Assembly (NCBI GenBank): GCA_963809485.1
Contig: CAWEJX010000020.1
Span: 512,001-576,000, forward strand
Source: an uncultured Acidobacteriota bacterium
GTDB taxonomy: Bacteria > Acidobacteriota > UBA6911
Direction: 5' to 3'
Length of the DNA stretch: 64,000 nucleotides
The translations under genes and the position numbers were made by a program. Positions within the stretch are counted from its first letter, which is position 1. Each line of letters begins with the position of its first letter. The notes under the pieces are model-generated. The model was not told the origin of the DNA and ran no database searches. It saw only the letters and a list, made by a program, of their open reading frames with translations. Shown piece after piece: positions 1 through 21,622 of this stretch.

Positions 1-1044
1 TGCCATCTTCAGCTGAACGCCGACTTCCGGGTCGGAAGCGAGTTCCAGTTGCAGAGGGCCGAGCGGGGGAGCTGAACGATGCTCGGCGGACAGAGTGAGT
101 TGATCCCGATGTTTTCTGAGATACAAAAAAGAGTCCAGCCACGCGTAAAGATCACTCGATCCGCGAAGACTGTAACCGGCTCCGGTACTGGAGGAAACCT
201 GTTTTCTGACATGGTGGACCAGGCAGATCGCAGTACCGCACTTGCGCTGCAGTGCTCTCAGGTAGCCAAGCAAGGCGGCGATATCTCCGCTGGCATTTTC
301 ATCGGCCATGTGGATTCTGATCAGCGGGTCCAGGATCAGAAGCGCCGGCCGGTGAAGGATGACGGTGGCCTCGAGCCTGACCTGATCGTCGGAACGATCC
401 AGGCGGAGGGAGTTGGTGACGATCACGCGCACGTCGAGCTGGCCAAAATCCAGTCCGCGCAGACTCGTGATTGTTTGGAGGCGGCGCCGGAGCGTAGCGG
501 CGGATTCCTCCGCCGCATACAGCAGAACGGGGCCAGGGGTGTGCACCGAGAAGGTTCCCAGACACGGAGAGGCGGATGCGACGGAGACAGCCATATCCAA
601 GGCCAATGTAGTCTTGCCTGATTTGGGCTGACCGCCGATGACCCCCACGGCCTCTGCGGTCCAAAGCCCTTCAACGAGCCACGGCTGTCGATTGCTGGAG
701 GCCTCAAGCGCAGCCGCTTTGACCACCGGCAGCACCGGATCCGAATCGGGTCGTTCATCGGAATCTGGGTTATGCGGGGAGGTTGGGACGGAGACCTCGA
801 ACGGCAGCAGAGTGCCGGCAGCTTGGTGGATTGCCTCGTTGAGAATGGCAGAATAGTTTTCCAGCAGGGATTGCTTGAACGCTTCACTGGGCACAGTTAG
901 ATGCACTCTGTTTCCGTCACAGCTGACAAACAGGATGGGCGGGAACCAGGTCTCGAAGCACTGCGGCCCGACATGGTTTTGTACATGAGCCAGGACTCGA
1001 TCCCAGAAGTCTGAGGCGCATGGGTATTGGGGTTGGTCGCTCAT
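1..1044 (-). CDS. DnaA N-terminal-like domain fused to RecA-fold/AAA_25 (RepA-type helicase-like) ATPase; runs off the window edge
   Basis: Not in the ORF track; translated manually. ATG 1044-1042 overlaps the ExeA stop (ATGA). Begins [64 protein letters not shown]; Walker A GGQPKSGKTT, Walker B LLILDPL, LVHHVRK, LRGSSDL. Open to position 1. Confidence 0.85.
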   Translation of the reverse strand, partial: MSDQPQYPCASDFWDRVLAHVQNHVGPQCFETWFPPILFVSCDGNRVHLTVPSEAFKQSLLENYSAILNEAIHQAAGTLLPFEVSVPTSPHNPDSDERPDSDPVLPVVKAAALEASSNRQPWLVEGLWTAEAVGVIGGQPKSGKTTLALDMAVSVASASPCLGTFSVHTPGPVLLYAAEESAATLRRRLQTITSLRGLDFGQLDVRVIVTNSLRLDRSDDQVRLEATVILHRPALLILDPLIRIHMADENASGDIAALLGYLRALQRKCGTAICLVHHVRKQVSSSTGAGYSLRGSSDLYAWLDSFLYLRKHRDQLTLSAEHRSAPPLGPLQLELASDPEVGVQLKMA

Positions 1045-1886
1045 AACAGTGCGTCCCCGCAGGCCTGAATGTCTTTCTGCACTACAGTCGCATCCACGAT
1101 GTTGGACTTGCCTTTGAGGGCAATGTTCAGGCACTGCTCACCGAGAATATCAAGACGGCGCATGAGCCCTCGGGCCGCCTTGGCCATCAGCAAAAGCGCA
1201 TCGTCACTGAAGACCTCGCGGCGGCAACCGGCGTTATTCATACGGTGACGGACGTAAAGCTTCGCCTGTTCGGCATCCAGAGGAGGAACCTGGATTCGAA
1301 TAGGAATGCGCGCAATCAGCGAAGCCAGAATGTTACGCTTGAGCATATCGCGCAAATCCGGCAGCCCCATCAGGATCAGTGATAGCCACGGTTTACTGTC
1401 CCGACAAAAATTGCCCAGGATATGAAGGTGCTCCAGTACCTGAATGCTCAACAGGTGGGCCTCGTCCAACGCGATTACAACATGCAGCCGGTGCTGGCTT
1501 GCCAGTTCCTGGATATGCTGACTGACGCCATGGTAGAGCGCAGCGAAGCTGGAGTGTGGCTCAAGCCCCAGCGCCACCGAGAGCTGCCGGTAAAAATCGC
1601 GACGGTTTACGGCAGAGTTCGATAAATAGTGAACACGATAGCGTCCTTGAGACAGATCTTCTTCCAACGCGCGCCATACACAGGTTTTGCCGCAGCCCGA
1701 ATCCCCCGTCATGACGGCGGAGGTTTGTCCTTCAACGGCCGCTTTCAGTGCCAGCAAAGCCTCTTTCAGGTGAGGCATCTGCAACATCTCGGAGGGATGG
1801 ATGTCCTTGCTGAACGGGGGACGAACCAATCCATCGCAGGAAAGAAGCTTATTCATGGTCGTCGCCTCCTTCCGGGGTTTCTTCAT
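1041..1886 (-). CDS. ExeA/GspA-like AAA ATPase (transposon-associated)
   Basis: Walker A GDSGCGKT, Walker [21 protein letters not shown]; overlaps the transposase 3' end. Confidence 0.85.
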
Positions 1887-3120
1887 CAGCTGCCTCGCCG
1901 GTGGGCGCCTGAGTGGGATCGGGGTGAATCATTTTTTCGAGGATCAAATCGGGAGCGTTAAGGCCGGTGTTGGGTTTTTCCTCGGGCTCAGGTTTCGAAA
2001 CGTTCCTGTGTCGATGGGCGTTGCCGACCGGATCGACGATGCGCAAAGGGATCTCGACATGGGCATCCAGCAGGCTGACCCGGTTCGTATCGAGTAAAGA
2101 GTACCGGAGTCGCACCTTGGTGCCGCACAGGTAGGGTGGCACTTCGTAACAGGTTGCCCGCCATTGCACGGTGGAGTCGTTGCGTGCCAGCCGCTCGACT
2201 TCGCCATAAAAGGCCTGTTCGAACTGGCTGTAGTCCGTGATCCAGCGGATATCGGCGGCATCGCTCTCCCAGACCTCGAGTGGAGTCTTGCCGGAAAGGG
2301 ATGCGTGAGGGCGACCGTGGTATTCCGATTCGACGTAACTCCAGATTCGCAGGTTCAGTTCATCGAGCGTTGTGACTGTTTTGGTGTCCAGGCGATCGAC
2401 CACGTGAGCCCGGAGTGTCCTCCAAAATCTTTCAGTTTTTCCTTTTTGATTGCCTGCGCGTACCTGGCAGGGGCGGGCGGCAAAATGATAATGGGCGCTC
2501 AGTTCCAGTAGTCTGGGATGAAAATGGATAGCGTCCCCATGCCCTTCCAGCACGACACTGCGAAGATTGTCGTAGAGCAGGACCCTGGGAATCCCATGCC
2601 AGTCTTCGAAGGCATGGATATGACCGCGTAGAAAACTCTCCATGCGCTGGTCGAAGAAGAACTCGAGATACAGCACCCGGGAATAGGAAAGCGTGATTAC
2701 AAAACAGGAAAGCCGACGGCGGGCGCGGCCAACAGGGACTTCCCCAAAATGCGCCCAGTCCACTTGTCCTTGCTCTGCAGGGAAAGTGCTCAGGCGAAGA
2801 AACGCTTCCCTGGGAGTTGGACGTATCCGGGCAATAAATCGCCGCAATTGCACGACGCTGCCATTGAAGCCGCGGTCCCGGATCATCTGATAAATCCGGG
2901 TTGCCCGTAAATGCGGATGTTTGGTCAGTATTTCTCGAATGAAGTCGGCATAGGGATCTGCCGCATTCCGTGGCGTTTTGGTCCCATTAAACCGATCGGT
3001 TTCCACAGCAGCGTTGACTGTTTCAGGATGCAGCCCCAATTCACGTGTAATGGTTCCGATTTTCCAGTGTTCTGCATAAAACAGGTGGCGAATCTGTGCG
3101 CGCGTTTCCTGGTCGATCAC
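1849..3120 (-). CDS. DDE transposase (IS21 IstA-like N-terminus, Mu/TnsB-like C-terminus)
   Basis: N-terminal [39 protein letters not shown]. Confidence 0.85.
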
Positions 3121-3125
3121 TTAGA

Positions 3126-3548
3126 TCACCTCCGTAGCTGAAAAGGATTCACAAACCGGCCCGGCCGACCGCAGATAATGCAGCAAGGAACTCCAGGCTC
3201 GATCTTTTTGCCGCTATTTCCGGTGAAAGCTGCCAGATGGAATACCGGCGCGATGATGCTGCCAGCATTCAGAGGCTTCCGGGAACCTTGATCCATAACG
3301 GAAAGTGCGGCACGACGTCGGCGGTAGGCTCGCTGCCGGTCTCGTTGATCCAGCTTGCCTTCCTGAGTTTTTCTGTGGCGGAGGTTCGCAGCTCGACGCT
3401 GCTCTCGGCGGGCTTTAGTGCGGCAATGCTCGCTGCAATATTGCTGGCCATGATCACAGCGGCGGCAGATCCAGAAGATGGCGTTACATTCTTTCCAGCG
3501 GCAAAACCTTTGACGGAGAACAACTTCGGCATCGTGTCGCATTCTCAC
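3126..3548 (-). CDS. Cys-rich basic hypothetical protein upstream of the transposase
   Basis: FWICRRCDHGQQYCSEHC and C-terminal CCIICG; 5 nt from the transposase start. Confidence 0.7.
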   Translation of the reverse strand: MRMRHDAEVVLRQRFCRWKECNAIFWICRRCDHGQQYCSEHCRTKARREQRRAANLRHRKTQEGKLDQRDRQRAYRRRRAALSVMDQGSRKPLNAGSIIAPVFHLAAFTGNSGKKIEPGVPCCIICGRPGRFVNPFQLRR

Positions 3549-3795
3549 CTGAAGGCGAGACTGGACAATCCATGCCGATCATGTCAGCTTAATGATGGCT
3601 GTTTAGAGCCCTCTCAACCGAGAGGTATTGCCAATGGACCCCGGTCGCGGACACGATCGGGGTCTCCTCTTGCTCAACCTTCCGCAAAACTTTACACGAT
3701 GATGATGACGGATTGCACGCCTTCGGCGTGGATGAAGTTGAGGCGTTTATTCCGGCGGGTGTTCAAATAAATACGTTTTTAGATGATCGATGACA

Positions 3796-4201
3796 CAAGG
3801 CGGCGCCCGATGATGTCCATTTCATCTTGATCGATACAAAACTTGTACAATTTGGCCCTTATGTAATGATGCCCCACCTGATCACTCCTGTTATAATTGA
3901 TTTGGTAGATGCCGCGACGGCACTCGCCTGGGTTGTGAACGAAATGGAGGCCCGATACAAAAGGCTTGCTCTTTGGGGAGTAAGAAGTGTCGACCAATAT
4001 AATGCCTTGGTTGGCAGTAACGCATTCAGCATGCTCGAAAAAGAATACGTGAGTGAGTTGAAAACAGCTCTTCCCCACCTGGTTATTGTGGTTTCTGAAC
4101 TGGCAGATCTTTGGGTCGGCTCAACTGCGTGCCGCAAATCGTTGACTCGCCTTGTCGATAGAGCTCATACCGTAGGAATTCACATTGCGGTCCCTGTTTG
4201 A
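3796..4201 (+). pseudogene. FtsK/SpoIIIE ATPase fragment truncated by the transposon
   Basis: KAAPDDVHFILIDTK...PHLITPV...LAWVVNEMEARYK...LPHLVIVVSELADL...GIH; Walker A region missing. Confidence 0.8.
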
Positions 4202-4309
4202 AAAAAGTGGCTGGTTTCGACTTATCAGCCTATAAGATAAGTTGGATCGCAGGTCAAATATGGCATCAATAATATGAAACCGCATTGGGAATTTAAGGAG
4301 GAGACGATA

Positions 4310-5998
4310 ATGAAAAAAATTTTGTCAATTGCGGCCATGGGGGTTTTTGCCTTCGTGGCCATTTACCTTATTTCGAAGGCTTTTTTTGCCAAGGATGCCT
4401 CGGAATATCAATATGAAGTCCTAAGTCCGTGGGCGGAAGTGGATCCCATTACCATCAGGGGAATTTCACCGAGAGTCGATACTCTGGCCGGCAAGAAGAT
4501 CGGATTGTTCGTCAACATGAAGCGCGCCGCAAGACCGATACAGGCCTATGTAGAAAAGAAACTCAAGGAAAGGTTTCCCGATTGTCAAACCAGCTATTTT
4601 GACGCTCCCTCGCAGAAGTATCTAGCGGAAAACCAGGAAAAGTATGCTGCCTGGGCAAAAGAAATGGACGCCGTTATTACGGCGGTTGGCGATTGAGGGG
4701 GCTGCACAAAGTACCTCACCTACAACAGTGTGGAGATTGAGGACTTTGGAACACCGGTCGTGCAACTGGTGAATCGCGGTTTCGTAGACGACGCCAAATC
4801 TGCGGCGTCCAGTAAGAGCATGCCAAATATTAGAGTTCTGGGAGAACCGATTGCATGTGAATCGACTGTTGCCAAGGACATCGAGTCGGGCATTGACATG
4901 GTATTTGATGATATTGTAGCGGCCTTGACTAGGCCTCTGACGGAGCAAGAAAAATCTCCGCAGATGAAGACCGAAGATGCACCAAGAATTGCGTTTAAGG
5001 GCAATCTGACGGAAGTGAATCAATTTTTCTACCGCAAAGGCTGGGGAGACGGACTGCCGATTATTCCGCCATCCGATGAAGCCGTGGCCGAGATGATGAA
5101 GGGAACGGATCTTCCGGCACACCACGTTGTGGCTAAAATCATCCCGCGGATGGGCAAGGCTACCGTGGAGAAGATTGCGGTGAACGCCGTCATGGCGGGA
5201 GCTCTGCCTACTCATATGCCGGTGCTGATCGCGGCGGTGGAGGCTGTGTGCGATCAGAATGCCGGATTCGGTAACTTTGAGGTGAGCACAGGATCATGGG
5301 CTCCTTTCATGGTCGTCAACGGCCCCATAAGAAAGGATATCCACATCAATTTCGGTTCCGGCGCTCTCAGTCCGGGGAATCTGCCCAACTCAGCAATAGG
5401 AAGGGCCTTGGGGCTGATCGTCAAGAATATCGGCGGAGCCAGGAAGGGTATCGAAGATATGGGAACGCTGGGGAATCCGGGCAAATGGTCGATGGTTATC
5501 GCCGAGAACGAGGAAGACAGCCCATGGGAACCCTTGCACGTCGAACGGGGATTCAAAAAGGAAGACAGCGCCATAACCATGTTTTTCCCGAACCAGCACG
5601 TCTATTCTGTACCGGGCGGCACGGATGCAAAAGGGATACTCGATTCGATTGCCCGCTCGAGTCCACGCTTTATGAGTGCCCTAATGATAATCCCATCCCA
5701 GGCAGACATTCTGGCGAGCGAAGGATGGACCAAGTCGAAGGTAAAGGAATATGTGACGAAACCCGGGGAGGCAGGTTCCGCTAAGTCCCGGGGTAATGCC
5801 GCTGCCCCTAATACTCCCCGAGACGCCTTAATGATCGTGGTCGCGGGCGGTCCCGGATCTTGGTATGGTGTGTTCAAGGGTTTCAGGGGCGGGCATATGG
5901 GCTATGATTACATCAGCAAAAAAATCGTGCTGCCGAAAAACTGGAATGAGTTGGCTGCAAAGTACAAAAACCTTATTCCTACCTATGAGAGGTATTAA
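4310..5998 (+). CDS. UGSC-family selenoprotein candidate (D-U-G-G-C) read through TGA 4694-4696, ~562 aa
   Basis: ORFs 4274-4696 and 4730-5998 share one frame separated only by GAT TGA GGG GGC TGC; RBS AAGGAGG before ATG 4310; downstream GWGDGLPIIPP and VEKIAVNAVMAG motifs. Confidence 0.8.
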
Positions 5999-6008
5999 AC
6001 TACTCTAA

Positions 6009-6049
6009 CCGCGGATTTACATGGGTTGTCAATCCGTGTAGATCCGCGG
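6009..6049 (+). terminator. Hairpin after the selenoprotein gene, abutting the IS end
   Basis: CCGCGGATTTACATGG...CCGTGTAGATCCGCGG inverted repeat. Confidence 0.55.
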
Positions 6050-7236
6050 GTCCTTCCGCCACCTACTGTTGTTACGCTGCCATTTTCTGTTCTCTGACTC
6101 TACTTAAAACTGCCTTTACGTAAATAAAAATGATCACAAAAGGAATTCGCCGCTGATCAGCCACGAATACCTCCCTGAAGCTGAGTCGTTTAGAAAGCAA
6201 TCCCGCCTGCATCGCCGGTGTCCTGATCTCGGGTCCGAATTTCAGCGCCCTGTGAGGCCTGACGAAATTGTAATGGCAGCGAAACAACTCGAGATGATCT
6301 TGGAGACGTTCCTTCCATCGTGCCTGACATATCGTCCGCCGACAAAGATACGCCGAGCCCTGTCGGATCGTCAGATTCAGCCGTTCGATAAAGGATGTGC
6401 TCAGCTTCAAGGAATCCTCGGAGTCGCGCAATGCCTGTTCGAATCGCCAGGCAGCGCCGATCACGGCTCTTCGCTCAACCTTGATAACACGATCGTTTCT
6501 GCGGGTCTTAATGACCTGGCCGTACAGACACGCTGGTCCAAAGACACGGCGGATACCTTTCGCATAAAAAGCCAATCCGTCCGTGGCAATTAGAGGAACA
6601 CATTCCAGATTCGATCGACTGGAGATATCTCGAAAGAGGGTGAGTGTGTTTCTATAGCTTCGCCTTCCAACAACGGTTGAAGGCCAAAGACGAGACCAGA
6701 CCTCAATCGCAGCAAAGATCCAAATCGGCTGTTCCTTGTCACGGATGATCGTGCGAATCTCATCTGCCTGAAGCTCTGAGATGGCGATCCCATCTATCTT
6801 TTGATCGTTGAAGCGGCGGCAAGAGTACGCCGCCTTTTGCAGCCAGCGATCGACCGTATTCCAGGCGATTCGCTTTGCCCGTGCAATTGCAGATTTGTTC
6901 AGGCCCTCAACACTCAGGACAGCAACTTCGTCAAAGGTCGCTCGACGATGCTGAAGTCGATGGTAGGGCGTGCCGGAATTGGAGCAGAAGGTTTTGCCGC
7001 AAGTGCCGCAACGATATCGACGACGACGCCCCCACTTAGTTTTGTAGAATCCGTGGCGGATGATGTTTCCGAAAGCGGCTTTTCCCGCCAGTGGACATTC
7101 CCTGTTTGGGCAGCTGAGACTCTTCATTGGTTTTGAACCGTGTCAATGATGGAACTGATTGCATGGAATTGAGTCTCAAACTATATCATGTGTGGGAGTT
7201 ACGGTCGCGCTGCCAACAGTCGACGGCAGAAGCACC
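6049..7236 (-). mobile_element. IS1-like insertion sequence
   Basis: Imperfect 23-bp terminal IRs GGTCCTTCCGCCACCTACTGTTG and (rc) GGTGCTTCTGCCGTCGACTGTTG; no flanking direct repeat. Confidence 0.75.
6072..7127 (-). CDS. IS1-like single-ORF transposase
   Basis: Zn ribbon CPNREC...RYRCGTCGKTF, HTH, LQADE, ATDG, TSFIERLNLTIRQ, YNFVRPH. Confidence 0.85.
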   Translation of the reverse strand: MKSLSCPNRECPLAGKAAFGNIIRHGFYKTKWGRRRRYRCGTCGKTFCSNSGTPYHRLQHRRATFDEVAVLSVEGLNKSAIARAKRIAWNTVDRWLQKAAYSCRRFNDQKIDGIAISELQADEIRTIIRDKEQPIWIFAAIEVWSRLWPSTVVGRRSYRNTLTLFRDISSRSNLECVPLIATDGLAFYAKGIRRVFGPACLYGQVIKTRRNDRVIKVERRAVIGAAWRFEQALRDSEDSLKLSTSFIERLNLTIRQGSAYLCRRTICQARWKERLQDHLELFRCHYNFVRPHRALKFGPEIRTPAMQAGLLSKRLSFREVFVADQRRIPFVIIFIYVKAVLSRVREQKMAA

Positions 7237-7246
7237 TTATTTTCTG

Positions 7247-7294
7247 TGGTGAGCCGTGAAGGAATCGAACCTTCAACCTACTGATTAAGAGTCA
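7247..7294 (-). repeat. att site: duplicated 3' 48 bp of tRNA-Lys
   Basis: TGGTGAGCCGTGAAGGAATCGAACCTTCAACCTACTGATTAAGAGTCA identical to 25967-26014. Confidence 0.95.
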
Positions 7295-7533
7295 ATACGG
7301 CAAGCCTTTTTCTGGTCAGATTTGGAACTAAAAGAAAAACATAATTCCTACCAAAACTCCGCATAAAATGCTTGCAAACTGCATGGATACTGGGTTCTAA
7401 TCGGGGCATTATGTTTCGCATCGTTTTTGCCGATTGTTCCTTCGAGTTTCATCTTTTTGGAACCAAGTTGGAACCAATTTTTTGGGGTTCCAAGATTTAG
7501 GAACGGAACAGCTGGTTCTGGCGGAGTAAATCT

Positions 7534-8811
7534 ATGCCGACTGCCAATCTGACTGATCGAAAAATTGACAGCTTGAAGCCTGGAAAAGAAATCGTTGAGT
7601 GGTGGGATAAGAAGATCCCGGGCTTCGGGATCCGCGTTTCTCCAAAGGGCAAGAAAACGTGGTTTGTGATGTATCGGTTTGCCGGATTAAGGAGACGCCT
7701 GAGATGTGGCCGATATCCGGCCGTTTCTCTCGATAAAGCCCGGCAGAAGGCAAAGCAGGCACTCCTGGATGTGAACGACGGGAAGGATCCGGCACAGGAA
7801 AAGAAAAACCAGGAAGCCCTCATAAAACGCGAGAGCCTGGAAGCTAAGACTTTTGCTCAATTGGCAAAGCTTTACATTGACGATTATGCCAAGGTGAACA
7901 AGCGCAGCTGGAAAGAAGACGACCGCATCGTCGATAAGCTGCTGAATCCGGAATTCGGCACAATCAATGTGAAGGAGATTACCAGGTCTCACGTTCGTTC
8001 ATTCCTGAAGGAAATGGCGGCAAAGACCAAAGTGCAGGCAAACCGGGCACACGCCTGTCTTCGAAAAATCTTCAATTGGGCGATCAAGGAAGAAACAGTG
8101 AACATGGAAGGAAATCCGGCTTCCGGGATCTCAAGCCCTGGTGGTAGGGAAAAGCCGAAGGAGCGGAGTCTTACCGATGATGAGATCAAAGCTGTTTGGA
8201 AAAAACTGGAAGCGGATTCGACCCCGCCCAAACGAGCCCTTCAGTTAATACTCATGACAGGTCAGAGGCCGGGGGAGGTCGCGGGCCTGCAATGGGAAGA
8301 GCTCAATATGGCCGATTCACTGTGGATGCTTCCAGGCAGCAGGGCGAAGAACGGTTTGGCGAATGTCGTGCCGTTAAGCAATCAATCTATGCGAATCCTC
8401 GAAAAGCAGCGCGAAGCCCTGGAATCACAGAGTAGGAAGCGTGAGAAAAGAAAACAGGAGGCAAGACAGACTGCGTTCGTTTTCCCATGCCGGCATCTCG
8501 CGACTGACAAGCCCATGACGGTCTACGCAATCGACCAGGAGGCTCAGATTATTTCTCGGGAACTGGGCATCCCGGGATTTGCTCCTCACGATCTTCGTCG
8601 AACCTGCTCAACGAAACTGGGAGAAATGCTGATCCCCGGCCATCTGATCGATCGTATTATGAATCACAAACCAGCCGGCATCACAGACCGCGTCTACAAC
8701 AAGTACGATTATTTTAAAGAGAAGCGGGAAGCGTTGAACGCATTTGGCGCCCGTCTTCTGCGCATCGTCAGCGAATTGGAAATAGTGGGAACTGAAACGG
8801 CAAAAAGATAA
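7534..8811 (+). CDS. Tyrosine integrase, P4-like with arm-binding domain
   Basis: GFGIRVSPKGKKTW, TGQRPGEV, PHDLRRT, IMNH, VYNKY catalytic motifs. Confidence 0.95.
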   Translation: MPTANLTDRKIDSLKPGKEIVEWWDKKIPGFGIRVSPKGKKTWFVMYRFAGLRRRLRCGRYPAVSLDKARQKAKQALLDVNDGKDPAQEKKNQEALIKRESLEAKTFAQLAKLYIDDYAKVNKRSWKEDDRIVDKLLNPEFGTINVKEITRSHVRSFLKEMAAKTKVQANRAHACLRKIFNWAIKEETVNMEGNPASGISSPGGREKPKERSLTDDEIKAVWKKLEADSTPPKRALQLILMTGQRPGEVAGLQWEELNMADSLWMLPGSRAKNGLANVVPLSNQSMRILEKQREALESQSRKREKRKQEARQTAFVFPCRHLATDKPMTVYAIDQEAQIISRELGIPGFAPHDLRRTCSTKLGEMLIPGHLIDRIMNHKPAGITDRVYNKYDYFKEKREALNAFGARLLRIVSELEIVGTETAKR

Positions 8812-8880
8812 GGCAAGGGCTCGATTAAGCCTGCTAAAATGTTGGTCACGTTGGGCTGAAACTAAGAAAGCCAGGTTACC

Positions 8881-9135
8881 TTGAATCCACGCAAACTACT
8901 TCAAAAGGCGCTGTCCTCTCCTGCGAACCTCCGATTTGAGGAAATCTGTGCCCTTGCAGTTGCTTTCGGATTTCACCTGTCCAGAGTAGGCGGAAGCCAT
9001 CATATCTATGCTCGTCCAGATATCCGTGAGCTCTTGAATCTTCAGGAAGTTGCCGGAAAAGCCAAGCCTTACCAGGTTAAACAGTTGCTAGGTTTGGCCG
9101 AACGATATAATCTGTCTATAGGTGAGAAAGAATGA
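8881..9135 (+). CDS. hicA: HicA-family toxin
   Basis: NLRFEE, GGSHHIY, AKPYQVKQ; coupled to hicB. Confidence 0.85.
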   Translation: MNPRKLLQKALSSPANLRFEEICALAVAFGFHLSRVGGSHHIYARPDIRELLNLQEVAGKAKPYQVKQLLGLAERYNLSIGEKE

Positions 9136-9362
9136 AAGATTACCATATCAACATTTTCTTCAGCGCAGAGGACGAGGGTTACATTGCGGACATTCCTGAT
9201 CTTCCCCACTGTGCTGCTTTTGGGAAAACGCAGGAACAGGCTCTGGCCGAAGTACTGAAAGCGAAAGCCGCCTGGCTGGAAGCCGCTCGCGCCGAGAACA
9301 AGCCGATCCCTGAGCCCTCATTCCGGCCGGTCATATACCAAACATCGAAAATTCCTGCATAA
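9132..9362 (+). CDS. hicB: HicB-family antitoxin (short)
   Basis: EDEGYIADIPDLPHCAAFGKTQEQAL...PIPEP. Confidence 0.9.
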   Translation: MKDYHINIFFSAEDEGYIADIPDLPHCAAFGKTQEQALAEVLKAKAAWLEAARAENKPIPEPSFRPVIYQTSKIPA

Positions 9363-10105
9363 AGCGCTCTTCATAGTCATTAGGCCTGAACGGCCGCAGA
9401 TTTTTGTTATTTCCCAGATCGTCGTCTGGGGAGACACGGTCACTTATCCGGATTGCCACAAACCAGGCAAGTGAAAAGTTCAATATTTAAGGGGATCTAC
9501 AAAGTCGGCATTAAATCACAGTTTCTCGTATTTTGAATTCTGCATCCTGAAAACTCGCCACCAAGCTTGCAGCCGGAGAATGGGGCTACCACGAGGGAGC
9601 GGTCGGCGAAACCGGAAAAATCATAGGGCGCTTCTATTGGGGAGGACCGCAGCAGCAAACGAAAGGGGCACGCCACCTGGCAACGGGCGTTTCCGGGGCA
9701 GGAAATCGGTTTGGGCTGGATGAGACGGACTGAAAGAGATCCGGCTATCCTCTGGCTTAATGGAGGGACGTGGGGCCATGCCGCTTTCGCCGAATTTGAC
9801 CCGTCAGCGAAAACTCTTACTCTACCTATCGGCCAAAGTTGATTTGGCAGAAGCAGTCATATGGATTGTCCTTGGCACGATTTTGGGAATGGAAGAATTA
9901 AGCTGTCTCCCAAATCGGTTGCGTAATTTGGCAAAAAAAAGAATTTGCATCCAATCGTTTGGACACTGCTTGGAAGATATCTCGCTTCTATGATTTCATT
10001 ACATTTTGGTGTCCCCATTTTAGGTTCGCTTGATTACAATATCGAATCAGCAACTTTGAGTAATTCTATTGCGCAGATTCTGGTGATTTTGTGGAACAGG
10101 AAGAA

Positions 10106-11668
10106 ATGCCCATTTACGTCATCGGGTCCGGCTTAGCCGCAACTGCTGCTGCTGTCGCGCTTGTACGCCAAGGCTGCCGCCCCATTGTTTTGGATGTCGG
10201 ACTCAAGCCGGATCCTGCAACGCAAATGCTGAAAAAGAGGCTCTCCTCAGTTGAGCCTGAGGACTGGAATCAGGAGGACATCACATGGCTCAGGCGAACC
10301 GGCCCAGTGGCAGCCAACGGTATTCCCCGGAAGCTAAATTTCGGCTCGGATCATACTTTCAGCGAACTGAACCTCGCTGTACCTGTTGAGTTATGTGGCG
10401 CCTCGATGTACCGATCCTTTGCCATGGGAGGATTCAGTAACGTCTGGGGAACCGTCATCCAGCCTTTATCCGCGAGAGAATTGGGGGATTGGCCAATCAC
10501 TGCTAGAGACCTTGTTCCCCATTACGCTGCCGCGTATTCTCTCATGTGCGATCGGCAAGAAGGAACCTCGACGGAAATCTTTCCCCCTGAGCCGATCCTG
10601 CGCCTGAGTCTCCAATCATGTGCGCTGCATTCAGATCTTATGGCAAATAGCAAGGCGCTGGAATCCCAGGGAATCCGATTCGGTTATCCGCGGCTGGGCA
10701 TACGTCAGGCTGATAAGGACGGGAAACAGGCCTGCCGCTACTGTGGGCTATGCTTGTACGGCTGTCCATATGACTGTACATACAATGCGGTGCCTACGTT
10801 GACGCGTCTTTCGGACGAAGGTTTGATTCATTATGTACCCGGGATACATGTGGACAAATTAATCCCAACGGGAGGGAACGTGCGGATCGACGCTCGGTCC
10901 GTTGCCGACGGCACTTTGCAGACCTTTCGTGCAAGCCGCGTTCTCTTGTCGGCGGGTGTGCTGGAGACTGCTCGAATCGTTCTAGTTTCAACGGGGCTCC
11001 GCAACACCCCTGTGCGCATTAAGCAAAGTGATATATTCACGCTGCCTCTTTTGCGATACAAGACGGCTGGCGACGTGTTCTCCGAAAAGATGCACACGTT
11101 GTGTCAGATGGTTGCAAGAGTCGAAGACAACACAATCTGCAAACGACCCGTGCATCTCCAATTCTATGGCTACAATGATTTATATTTAAAACTCTTAATG
11201 CAAAGGGTTTTCGGTGCCGGCCGCTATATCGCGCCCCTGTTGCGAACTGTAGTGGCGAGACTCTTCATAATATTCGGGTATCTGGATTCCGACGACTCGT
11301 CGGAGATTGAGATCAAACTCTCAAGTGATGGAAGGAAGCTCTTGGTGACGGGGCACAGAAACCCTGCTGCTGATGAAATCGTGCGGAAGGTGGCTCTGAA
11401 ACTTCTTCGTTGCTGCAGATTGATTGGTGGAGTCCCTCTCTATTTTTTGAGGCGGCTGGATCTGCCAGGAGGGAGCTATCATACCGGAAGCACATTCCCC
11501 ATGCGCCAGATTCCCAAATTCCTTGAAACCGACCGGCTAGGTCGTTTGTCTTCCTTGCCTGGAGTCCATATAGTCGATGCGAGTGTCCTCCCAGACGTGC
11601 CGACGTCAGCCCCGGCATTTACGGTCATGGCGAATGCCCACCGCATTGCCTCGGAGTGTCTGAAATAG
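10106..11668 (+). CDS. GMC-family FAD oxidoreductase with ferredoxin-type Cys motif
   Basis: VIGSGLAA, GGFSNVWG, CRYCGLCLYGCP, YHTGSTFPM, VDASVLP, TVMANAHRIA. Confidence 0.85.
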   Translation: MPIYVIGSGLAATAAAVALVRQGCRPIVLDVGLKPDPATQMLKKRLSSVEPEDWNQEDITWLRRTGPVAANGIPRKLNFGSDHTFSELNLAVPVELCGASMYRSFAMGGFSNVWGTVIQPLSARELGDWPITARDLVPHYAAAYSLMCDRQEGTSTEIFPPEPILRLSLQSCALHSDLMANSKALESQGIRFGYPRLGIRQADKDGKQACRYCGLCLYGCPYDCTYNAVPTLTRLSDEGLIHYVPGIHVDKLIPTGGNVRIDARSVADGTLQTFRASRVLLSAGVLETARIVLVSTGLRNTPVRIKQSDIFTLPLLRYKTAGDVFSEKMHTLCQMVARVEDNTICKRPVHLQFYGYNDLYLKLLMQRVFGAGRYIAPLLRTVVARLFIIFGYLDSDDSSEIEIKLSSDGRKLLVTGHRNPAADEIVRKVALKLLRCCRLIGGVPLYFLRRLDLPGGSYHTGSTFPMRQIPKFLETDRLGRLSSLPGVHIVDASVLPDVPTSAPAFTVMANAHRIASECLK

Positions 11669-21140: not shown

Positions 21141-21584
21141 CTACCTATCGGCCCGCGGTGGCGGAGATGAAATGCGAAGTGGTTGCGCTGGATCATAATG
21201 GAAGATTTTCGTTTCAGTTGCCGGAATTGGCCGTGACTTGAGCGCCGCTATGCGCTTCTGAACTTCGTCTGAAGTCACAGGGGGCTCTGCATTAGGCATC
21301 TGCATCTTGGCTGAGCCATTATTCGGGTTGTTCTTGGCTTTCCGCTGAGCACCCTCGATCCTGGTTCGGCCAGCCTTCTTGGCTGGAACCGTCCAGCGCT
21401 GAACGAAGTCGTGAATCGTGCTTATGGATGCGTGGATTTGGAACGTATCCAGGACCCGGGCAATTTCCCGATATGTGCGGCGCCGACGCTGCAGTTCCTT
21501 AATCAAAGCACCGTAAGGCTCGAGGCGGGAACGAGACCGCTTTTCGGGCAGATTGTCGAGAATACGGTCAAAGTTTGAATCCAT
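21141..21584 (-). CDS. Small HTH-like protein of the mobilisation region
   Basis: RSRLEPY...RRRTYREIARVL...ASISTIHDFV. Confidence 0.65.
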   Translation of the reverse strand: MDSNFDRILDNLPEKRSRSRLEPYGALIKELQRRRRTYREIARVLDTFQIHASISTIHDFVQRWTVPAKKAGRTRIEGAQRKAKNNPNNGSAKMQMPNAEPPVTSDEVQKRIAALKSRPIPATETKIFHYDPAQPLRISSPPPRADR

Positions 21585-21622
21585 CGGGCTGGCCTGAGGC
21601 TAGAAATAACGGCGGAGTAATG

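Follow-up and report, generated by a model that had tools for sequence, protein, structure and literature searches.

At its first base, the stretch of DNA analysed here (the window: 64,000 nucleotides, positions 512001-576000 of contig C20 in genome G000) cuts into ORF4, an open reading frame (ORF) of the minus strand whose product combines domain I of the replication initiator DnaA with a helicase-like ATPase. We have little doubt that ORF4 is the last gene of a transposon of ~4.55-4.72 kb that has imperfect inverted ends, a transposase of the DDE (Asp-Asp-Glu) type and the gene order ORF1-ORF2-ORF3-ORF4. As for its role, ORF4 may be the element's own replication factor, which would tie transposition, at its replication step, to the host replisome; we give this reading a probability of roughly 40-45%. 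The explanation as a whole, comprising this anatomy, the replication-factor reading and the interpretation of the copy in the window as a truncated hybrid, has in our estimate about even odds.

ORF4 and its transposon

ORF4 starts with the ATG at window 1044..1042 and runs without a stop to the first base of the window. Its first 348 codons, encoding domain I, the linker and the RepA-like ATPase as assigned by Pfam and an alignment of 40 sequences, thus occupy window 1..1044 (minus strand). The frame reads on in C20 to a stop at window -239..-237, which gives a protein of 427 amino acids; the last 79 codons, those of a winged helix, lie at window -237..0 (C20:511764-512000, minus strand) in the contig sequence left of the window. 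A first-pass annotation, made from the letters of the window, had noticed this gene; the edge that cuts it is that of the window and not that of the contig, as C20 continues to the stop of ORF4. The gene appears in the ORF listing solely when open-ended ORFs are allowed, and this open-ended status may explain its absence from the ORF track. Upstream lies a gene for 281 amino acids, ORF3 (1041..1886, minus strand), with its TGA at 1043..1041, so that stop and start overlap as ATGA, just as the annotation had reported.

The protein consists of DnaA domain I, a Pro/Asp linker, a RecA-fold ATPase similar to RepA of plasmid RSF1010 and a C-terminal winged helix. The Pfam model DnaA_N (PF11638) matches residues 12-72 (window 829..1011, minus strand) with 48.6 bits against a gathering cut-off of 24.6, and AAA_25 (PF13481) matches residues 107-282 (window 199..726, minus strand) with 122.5 bits against a cut-off of 27. 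A profile of 40 homologues compared with the PDB retrieved domain I of Bacillus subtilis DnaA (4tps_B, E-value 2.8e-12), DnaA of Thermotoga maritima and Escherichia coli and, over residues 132-299, RSF1010 RepA (1g8y, E-value 3.3e-13). The AlphaFold2 model of the whole protein, with a mean predicted local distance difference test (pLDDT) score of 76.6, has three folded parts joined by the linker, a Pro/Asp/Ser-rich segment (residues ~86-118) that is disordered in the model with pLDDT below 50. Residues 1-95 were also modelled separately (pLDDT 83.9), and Foldseek ranks 1-5 for this model are all DnaA domain I: 4tps (template modelling (TM) score 0.71-0.82, root-mean-square deviation 1.5-1.6 Å), 2wp0 and 2e0g. 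The modelled fold, which covers residues 13-85, has the order alpha-alpha-beta-beta-alpha-beta and superposes on the solved domain I structures; the next matches after DnaA are the DciA helicase loaders (8a3v, 7ykm). The claim of the first-pass annotation that the first ~80 residues resemble DnaA domain I is thus borne out by Pfam, the PDB profile and the models, and the N-terminal motif it quoted is present and conserved in the 40 homologues. Its prediction of a Pro/Asp linker followed by an AAA_25/RepA-type ATPase, for which it proposed profile scans and structure prediction, proved equally sound.

By profile and by fold, RepA is the best solved relative of residues ~119-350. For the ATPase core, Foldseek places the RepA structures 1nlf, 1g8y and 1olo first, with TM scores normalised to the target of 0.70-0.72 and ~19% identity. 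The GGxPKxGK motif, K144, E179, D239, the HHxRK motif (H277-H278, K281) and R294, the arginine of an RGSS motif, are invariant in the 40 sequences; the Walker A motif, the catalytic Glu, the Walker B motif, HHxRK and the arginine align with the same motifs in RepA. ORF4 therefore has all the motifs of a RepA-class ring helicase, for which ring formation and unwinding are predicted. The winged helix takes up the last ~70 residues and is modelled as three helices (361-372, 379-386 and 390-402) and two strands; weak GntR/MarR matches are found in the C-terminal part of the homologues.

In DnaA, domain I is a platform for DnaB, for self-association and for regulators, and it binds DnaB and DiaA. 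The positions with the strongest conservation in DnaA domain I, namely W14, F30, W33, P52 and F56, are retained in ORF4. Among the 40 sequences W14 is nearly invariant and F56 invariant; the two correspond in the alignment to W and F of the B. subtilis protein, and we take them to be equivalent to W6 and F46 of E. coli DnaA, which serve self-association and DnaB/DiaA binding. No match to Bac_DnaA (the AAA+ domain III) or to domain IV was found in ORF4, and the DnaA model TIGR00362 matches residues 14-98 only, with 27 bits against 344. With both of these domains missing, a RecA fold in its ATPase and a winged helix for binding DNA, ORF4 is no paralogue of DnaA; judged by its sequence it is a carrier of the first domain of DnaA, and it is not a plasmid RepA either.

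Domain I is the fastest-evolving part of ORF4, with a mean pairwise identity of 43.5% as compared to 70.8% for the ATPase, as would be expected of a surface that tracks host partners. A predicted complex of host DnaB (from C6, 20-row alignment) with domain I (residues 1-95, 40-row alignment) scored 0.03 against a mark of 0.32, in a run without controls, and speaks neither for nor against binding. The host also has DciA and PriA. Two DnaB proteins are encoded in G000, at C7:609850-611202 and C6:66238-67569. The latter is the orthologue, being 78-97% identical to DnaB of 12 genomes of the same genus and 62-71% identical to that of G407 and G220; the former is 53-56% identical to DnaB of those genomes (48% for G220). 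The base composition of C6 and C7 matches that of C20.

The only DnaA of the host is encoded at C7:454272-455573, beside dnaN. It is 68% identical to DnaA of an Acidobacteriota metagenome-assembled genome (MAG), and the host is therefore Acidobacteriota-like. Residues 12-105 of ORF4 are 42% identical to the N-terminus of host DnaA, the start of the linker included, and 47-53% identical to DnaA of four Acidobacteriota MAGs; these values (42-53%) are about equal to the identity of domain I within the family (43.5%). A quick IQ-TREE analysis of 63 domain I sequences and 89 columns, from which ten DnaA loci with incomplete alignment and L130 were left out, groups the 40 transposon rows with six DnaA rows (that of the host, L004-L007 and the long-branched L158) and sets this group apart from the 17 other DnaA rows of the phylum, with a Shimodaira-Hasegawa-like approximate likelihood ratio support of 95. 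The nesting of domain I among DnaA sequences of the host phylum points to a dnaA gene of that phylum as the probable source of its capture; a single origin and repeated origins are both compatible with the tree.

The helicase seems to have been transposon-borne before it acquired domain I, since in one locus (L015, genome G318) a transposase and an AAA_22 ATPase are accompanied by an AAA_25 protein of 323 amino acids without domain I; ORF3 of this locus is 28% identical to that of the window. In more distant AAA_25 relatives from the same phylum the N-terminal module is Prim-Pol (L020), Toprim (L021) or DnaB-N (L022). As these modules occupy the same position as domain I, the N-terminal position of the helicase core can be viewed as a slot for replication-partner modules. 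In two further loci (L074:192-2319 and L081:2781-5839) an IS21-type istB is succeeded immediately by a DnaA_N+AAA_25 gene that overlaps the end of istB; in L081, no more than a 3' part of istA lies ahead of them. An ORF4-type gene thus appears to have moved between IS481-like/AAA_22 and IS21-type modules. Plasmid and phage records match the ATPase core only, with identities of at most 31.7% among the matches listed, and none of them (72,556 plasmid records) covers at least 80% of ORF4; the phage relatives are annotated as primase/helicase and the IncQ relatives as RepA helicase.

A homologue search with ORF4 gave 993 proteins at E ≤ 0.001 among 8000 scored candidates. PF11638 and PF13481 occur together in 112 of the 120 best homologues; the remaining eight are five fragments (254-387 amino acids) and three full-length proteins. 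The homologues are usually ~415-435 amino acids long, and their few named sources are Planctomycetota and Acidobacteriota MAGs. A search with residues 1-105 alone returned 601 matches at E ≤ 0.001, 22 of them at E ≤ 1e-10 and mostly short fragments, and a contig scan of genomes with the single protein found one close locus only. The longest contigs with homologues concentrate at 4.6-5.9 kb, and several of the clusters are found on 7-16 contigs, a pattern that a multi-copy repeat would produce. When metagenomes were scanned with the ORF4 alignment, 396 stretches out of 439 pattern matches were confirmed, and the locus counts given here rest on 80 of those 396. The transposon family is so far unnamed and appears to be abundant in soil and sediment metagenomes. 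One metagenome contig (L062) holds two copies of the element (1465-5028 and 6770-11441), the upstream one without the first gene, which is consistent with multi-copy, recently active elements.

On contigs of at least 4.4 kb, ORF4 is the last of four genes on the same strand. ORF1 (~245-290 amino acids) belongs to DUF6431 with 27-29 bits against a cut-off of 26.6. ORF2 (~450-475 amino acids, 558 in one group) is an IS481-like DDE transposase with the domains HTH_32, rve and rve_3; two intact proteins score 163.6 and 152.9 bits with the NCBIfam IS481 model (NF033577), below its cut-off of 224, and in the NCBIfam ranking IS481 comes first, before ISNCY, IS21 and IS3. ORF3 (~270-284 amino acids), which overlaps ORF2, is an AAA_22 ATPase resembling the transposition helpers MuB and TniB; the ORF3 of the window matches PF13401 (AAA_22) with 74.9 bits and PHROG 296, 'DNA transposition protein', with an E-value of 2.7e-19. 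ORF4, with DnaA_N and AAA_25, closes the set.

Where enough DNA upstream of ORF4 is available, the loci that show the linkage number 65 of 67 for ORF3, 52 of 54 for ORF2 and 45 of 47 for ORF1; the exceptions are a cut locus (L051) and the two with IS21-type partners (L074 and L081). ORF3 and ORF4 overlap by ATGA in all six loci for which both coordinates are available (L027, L028, L030, L044, L049 and L096). Relative to L027, ORF4 has the lowest mean identity of the four genes, 55.5% as compared to ~75% for ORF2 and ORF3; correlating per-gene identities across loci in search of co-evolution was uninformative, the identity range being narrow.

The element could also be delimited by its ends, which were located from the point where copies cease to be alike. 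Downstream of ORF4, the nine closest copies and the genome of the window lose similarity sharply after ...GCGTAACA, ~170 bp past the stop, precisely the point at which several contigs end. Upstream of ORF1 stands TGTTACG, the reverse complement. On 18 contigs the TGTTACG...CGTAACA ends lie 4545-4724 bp apart, all 18 delimited elements having TGTTACG ends, and one contig (L044) is exactly one element. The ends begin imperfect inverted repeats of ~25 bp, TGTTACGCGGCG..TGATCCAGGGG at one end and CGCCGCGTAACA at the other, with TTCC/GGAA repeats adjoining the left end on its inner side; a blastn-short search for long terminal inverted repeats gave nothing convincing. Since both ends were delimited around the four genes, and the right end lies beyond its stop, ORF4 is inside the element. 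Gene order and ends together thus uphold the first-pass view that the fusion is borne by a transposon and that its homologues are linked to pairs of transposase and ATPase, and none of the three outcomes that the annotation had named as refuting it was observed.

Right after the stop of ORF4, all 16 elements compared and the genome of the window (window -249..-300, C20:511700-511751) have a palindrome with a stem of 15-17 bp. It is of the type CGTTCCGTTCCCTTCCC-loop-GGGAAGGGAACG, with the stem TTCCCTTCCC/GGGAAGGGAA, a loop with CCTATAGAG and no T-run behind it, and we regard it as a candidate protein-binding site. A junction promoter, with an outward -35 box at the right end and a -10 box that points inward at the left end, as in copy-out insertion sequences (IS), was also considered; by eye the match is poor.

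Possible roles of ORF4

If ORF4 acts as a replication factor of the element, transposition could proceed as follows. The transposase and ORF3 would make a strand-transfer or single-strand-bridged intermediate, and ORF4 would then be brought to the element by its winged helix, which would bind the palindrome and the TTCC/GGAA repeats at both ends, or alternatively, or in addition, through ORF3. There it would form a ring and unwind the element, and domain I would engage the usual host partners of DnaA domain I, i.e., DnaB, DnaA itself or regulators. The replication step, either copy-out or Mu-like replicative transposition, would no longer wait for the host restart machinery. The layout of ORF4, with domain I, a linker, an ATPase predicted to oligomerise and a DNA-binding domain, can be inferred to mirror that of DnaA. 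The suggestion of the first-pass annotation that the element may recruit or mimic the initiation machinery of the host is therefore a plausible one.

Replication of the strand-transfer intermediate of phage Mu depends on the PriA restart primosome of the host. IS3 and IS481 are stated to have TGT ends, and the TGT-end IS families related to them transpose by a copy-out-paste-in pathway that includes a replication step, as described in one source (10.1101/2022.12.17.520857). For the copy-out replication step of IS, a PrimPol-helicase, IEE, is proposed in another (10.1101/2023.06.07.543989). An element-bound helicase or initiator that plugs into the replisome via domain I would fit the facts on Mu, copy-out IS and IEE, as well as the structural likeness to DciA.

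A bolder version of the replication-factor reading makes ORF4 a mimic of DnaA, the element's own initiator, in which a captured domain I, a RepA-class ring and an element-specific winged helix would start replication by themselves by assembling on the palindrome and the ends and recruiting the host replisome, the gene having moved between IS481-like/AAA_22 and IS21-type modules. We hold this version to be tentative and rather doubtful.

Several observations weigh against ORF4 as a replication factor and against parts of the wider explanation. With its four genes, the element encodes no primase, polymerase or resolvase. The TGT ends and the IS481/IS3-like transposase point to copy-out-paste-in, and since other copy-out IS families manage on host replication, a helicase is not obviously needed. 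Nor are all AAA_25 proteins helicases. Domain I is not essential for this type of transposon, as relatives without it exist (L015), and the low conservation of ORF4 (55.5%) could reflect weaker constraint. The palindrome could be a site of the transposase or a transcription stop instead of a site of ORF4. Of the 18 elements, a single one (L079, GCTAT) has a target duplication that can be made out by eye, a count affected by possible mis-joining of metagenome flanks of repeats, and the chemistry of insertion is therefore undocumented. Among 401 species-representative genomes of the phylum, a tally that, like the comparison of host DnaA with the MAG, takes in G049 and G024, two genomes flagged as unpublished that contribute no sequence and enter no other claim, ten including G000 match at E ≤ 1e-20, and the full fusion with domain I occurs in two only, G000 and G210, although repeats are often missing from such assemblies. 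Finally, the copy in the window has no left end and carries a hybrid transposase, and none of the contigs of four other sequencing runs bridges its junction at window 2440-2448, continuing into either a normal ORF2 or a normal istA; these contigs come from related copies, no run contains half of the words of window 1-4200 (0.26 in the best one), and no RNA run is among those listed.

Of the other roles that can be considered for ORF4, one, which we regard as unlikely, is that of a target selector comparable to TnsE or TniQ. Here domain I would dock on host DnaA, DnaB or a part of the replisome while the ATPase and the winged helix hold DNA, and together with the ORF3 ATPase the protein would steer insertions to forks, origins or replicating plasmids without replicating the element. 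Tn7/Tn5053-type elements keep their target selectors at the place in the operon that ORF4 takes, directly after and coupled to a MuB/TniB-like ATPase, and a host-derived, fast-evolving domain I would suit the role. A pure adaptor, however, would not need the helicase-type catalytic motifs, all of which are invariant. Insertion sites point the same way: the ten ORFs that flank elements on seven longer contigs, admittedly a small sample, are mutually unrelated (they comprise a flavoprotein, a tetratricopeptide repeat protein, a radical S-adenosylmethionine protein, other transposases and a second element copy) and include no dnaA or origin genes, and in G000 the ORF4 copy is on C20 and dnaA on C7. 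The targeting of origins, which the first-pass annotation had put forward, thus finds no support in these flanks.

Somewhat less likely again is an episomal phase, in which the excised circle would replicate as a small plasmid with ORF4 as its Rep protein and the palindrome as its origin, the element being a transposon-plasmid hybrid. Such a phase would account for the initiator-like layout of ORF4 (domain I, ATPase and DNA-binding domain), for its closest solved relative being the helicase of plasmid RSF1010, for the conserved palindrome next to the gene and for the many contigs of about one element in length, L044 being exactly one. Contigs of that length are, however, the usual product of assemblers from chromosomal repeats. 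No contig shows joined ends or circular permutation, all 18 elements examined lying in or ending at linear flanks; no primase or separate initiator is encoded; and in the 72,556 plasmid records no relative exceeds 31% identity or covers at least 80% of the protein.

Interference with host initiation, or sensing of it, is less probable still. By competing with its counterpart in DnaA for DnaB, DnaA or regulators, domain I of ORF4 would delay or sense initiation, e.g., to time transposition to the cell cycle, and the ATPase would have another role. It speaks for this possibility that domain I is as close to DnaA of the host phylum as family members are to one another and that it keeps W14, F30, W33, P52 and F56. 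A decoy, on the other hand, needs no fusion to a conserved ATPase and winged helix, and the transposon relatives without domain I keep the ATPase.

That ORF4 is a passenger unrelated to transposition, such as a defence or addiction gene, is highly improbable: it does evolve faster than ORF2 and ORF3 and can change partners, following an IS21-type istA-istB in L074 and L081, but in 65 of 67 loci neither its place in the order nor its coupling varies, the overlap of 4 bp is conserved, PADLOC matches none of the four element proteins, and both alternative partners are pairs of transposase and ATPase, which argues for a role in transposition.

The hybrid copy in the window

G000 contains one full ORF4 and one ORF3. 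From window 2448 down to -419, the DNA is 84% identical to positions 2000-4835 of L027, the right end of the element being at window -410 (C20:511590), i.e., 410 bp left of the window. Window 2440-3795, in turn, is 96.98% identical over 1356 nt to C12:23511-24866. At C12:21562-24866 there is an intact IS21-like element with a Cys-rich ORF of 140 amino acids, an IstA of 496 and an IstB of 274 amino acids, and inverted ends.

The two parts meet at window 2440..2448, where nine bases are common to both parents and encode the NQKG/TKGK motif just before the catalytic Glu. On one side, window 1849..2448 (minus strand) is the 3' part of ORF2, the IS481-like transposase gene, by its 84% DNA match to L027, in which ORF2 has the HTH_32, rve and rve_3 domains. 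On the other, window 2440..3120 (minus strand) is the 5' part of the IS21-like istA by its 96.98% match to C12. The fusion is in frame: the ORF of 423 amino acids at 1849-3120 is a chimera of the N-terminal 227 residues of IstA and the C-terminal part of ORF2. As the join lies before the catalytic Glu, the two Asp would come from one transposase family and the Glu from the other. Further to the right, window 3126..3548 (minus strand) holds the Cys-rich ORF of 140 amino acids, which on C12 has a 97% identical equivalent upstream of istA, and window 3752..3795 (minus strand) holds the IS21-like left inverted repeat (TGTCATCGATCATC...), identified by comparison with C12; C12 alone shows the inverted partner of this repeat (21562-21599). 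Relatedness of the 140-amino-acid ORF to ORF1 and DUF6431 was considered, and there was no significant similarity (E-value 0.097). Homologues of this ORF, at 46% identity, are also present on C4 and C7.

The right-hand part of the window copy accordingly comprises the left repeat, the 140-amino-acid ORF and the 5' 227 codons of istA, and is not a complete IS21 element with istA and istB between inverted repeats. From the four-gene element, the left end, ORF1 and the transposase gene's 5' half are missing in this copy, and from the IS21-like element istB and the right end. ORF3 and ORF4 are intact, ORF4 being 94% identical to its closest metagenome homologue. Given what it has lost of the four-gene element, the copy is probably no longer mobile. 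In the first-pass annotation, ORF4 had been placed as the fourth gene of the transposase operon, which holds for the intact relatives; in the window that operon is a hybrid. The right end of the element is at window -410, and the TGT end at ~3795 is not the partner of this end, as window 2440-3795 belongs to the IS21-like element. The simplest reading of the hybrid would be that two elements, adjacent and in the same orientation, lost the DNA between them through a deletion at a microhomology; a chimera made in assembly is a possible alternative.

At C7:154676-154826, beside a TetR-like gene, there is a remnant of the final ~50 codons of ORF4 (92% DNA identity over 124 nt, C7:154676-154799), and is, by its sequence, the trace of another, lost copy of the element. 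The surroundings of the hybrid are an IS hotspot. A repeat of ~1.2 kb at window 6048-7246, with an ORF of 351 amino acids (6072-7127, minus strand), has many full and partial copies at 85-99% identity on C20, C16, C7 and C4 and looks like an active IS; it is followed by an ORF of 425 amino acids (7534-8811, plus strand) that is tyrosine integrase-like by reading alone. The hybrid sits between paralogous genes of a single family, a pair of 140 and 422 amino acids on the right (window 4274-5998) and a protein of 601 amino acids on the left (C20:509698-511503, window -2302..-497). The right-hand pair is duplicated at 90% identity at C1:74856-76689, the match ending exactly at the IS in 6048.

Comparison with known systems

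In the full texts searched, no DDE transposon that carries a domain I-helicase gene was found described (ISfinder and TnCentral, where an unnamed entry may exist, were outside this search), in line with the remark of the first-pass annotation that it knew of no characterised transposon with this module; DUF6431 receives two incidental mentions only. To our knowledge, phage Mu, which relies on host restart proteins, is the one case in which the start of the replication step in copy-out or replicative transposition is understood in detail. A common and compact transposon that couples a helicase to the partner-binding domain of the host initiator would offer a direct handle on this start, and its reconstitution is feasible because there are four genes, defined ends and a candidate binding site. 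The element documents the capture by a mobile element of a domain from an essential host replication gene, shows domain I as a module that can be portable outside DnaA, and adds an unnamed transposon family that is widespread in bacteria.

As regards its parts, ORF4 shares with DnaA the fold and sequence of domain I (residues 13-85) and the overall domain order, but lacks the Bac_DnaA AAA+ domain and domain IV, in whose place it has a RecA fold and a winged helix. The DciA loader, the next structural match of domain I, is present in the host. RSF1010 RepA, the hexameric IncQ helicase, works with a separate initiator and a primase on the plasmid origin. ORF4 resembles it in profile, fold and ATPase motifs, at ~19% identity in the structural alignment; it differs in its domain I and its winged helix, both of which RepA lacks, and in that ORF4 sits in a DDE transposon. 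With IEE it has in common that a replication-type protein is proposed for the copy-out replication step of circle-forming IS families, but IEE is not encoded by the IS on which it acts and is a UvsW/DEAD-like helicase with a primase-polymerase N-terminus and no domain I.

Among transposons, members of IS481 are simple one-gene IS, whereas the element has four conserved genes and its transposase stays below the curated family score, so it is not a simple IS481. IS21 elements encode the transposase IstA and a helper ATPase, IstB, which, like ORF4, is related to replication proteins; moreover, an IS21-like element is fused to the four-gene element in the window, and the domain I-helicase gene follows istB in L074 and L081. 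IstB is, however, a DnaC-like, i.e., loader-like, AAA+ protein and not a RecA-fold helicase, and canonical IS21 has two genes and no domain I.

A further parallel is the Mu/Tn552/Tn5053 type (MuA-MuB, TniA-TniB), the two-component transposons in which a DDE transposase is accompanied by an adjacent ATPase of the MuB/TniB kind. The element has precisely this pair, an rve-type DDE transposase gene followed by an overlapping gene for a P-loop ATPase. ORF3 matches the phage 'DNA transposition protein' family, and the ends are of the TG..CA type with extra subterminal repeats. It differs from this type in having a short transposase that is nearest to IS481, no TniQ or resolvase, and two extra genes, for the DUF6431 protein and the domain I-helicase. 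We know of no element of the Mu/Tn552/Tn5053 type that encodes a helicase, nor was one found in the literature searched. In general, these features suggest that the element works like a two-component transposon of the Mu/Tn552/Tn5053 type.

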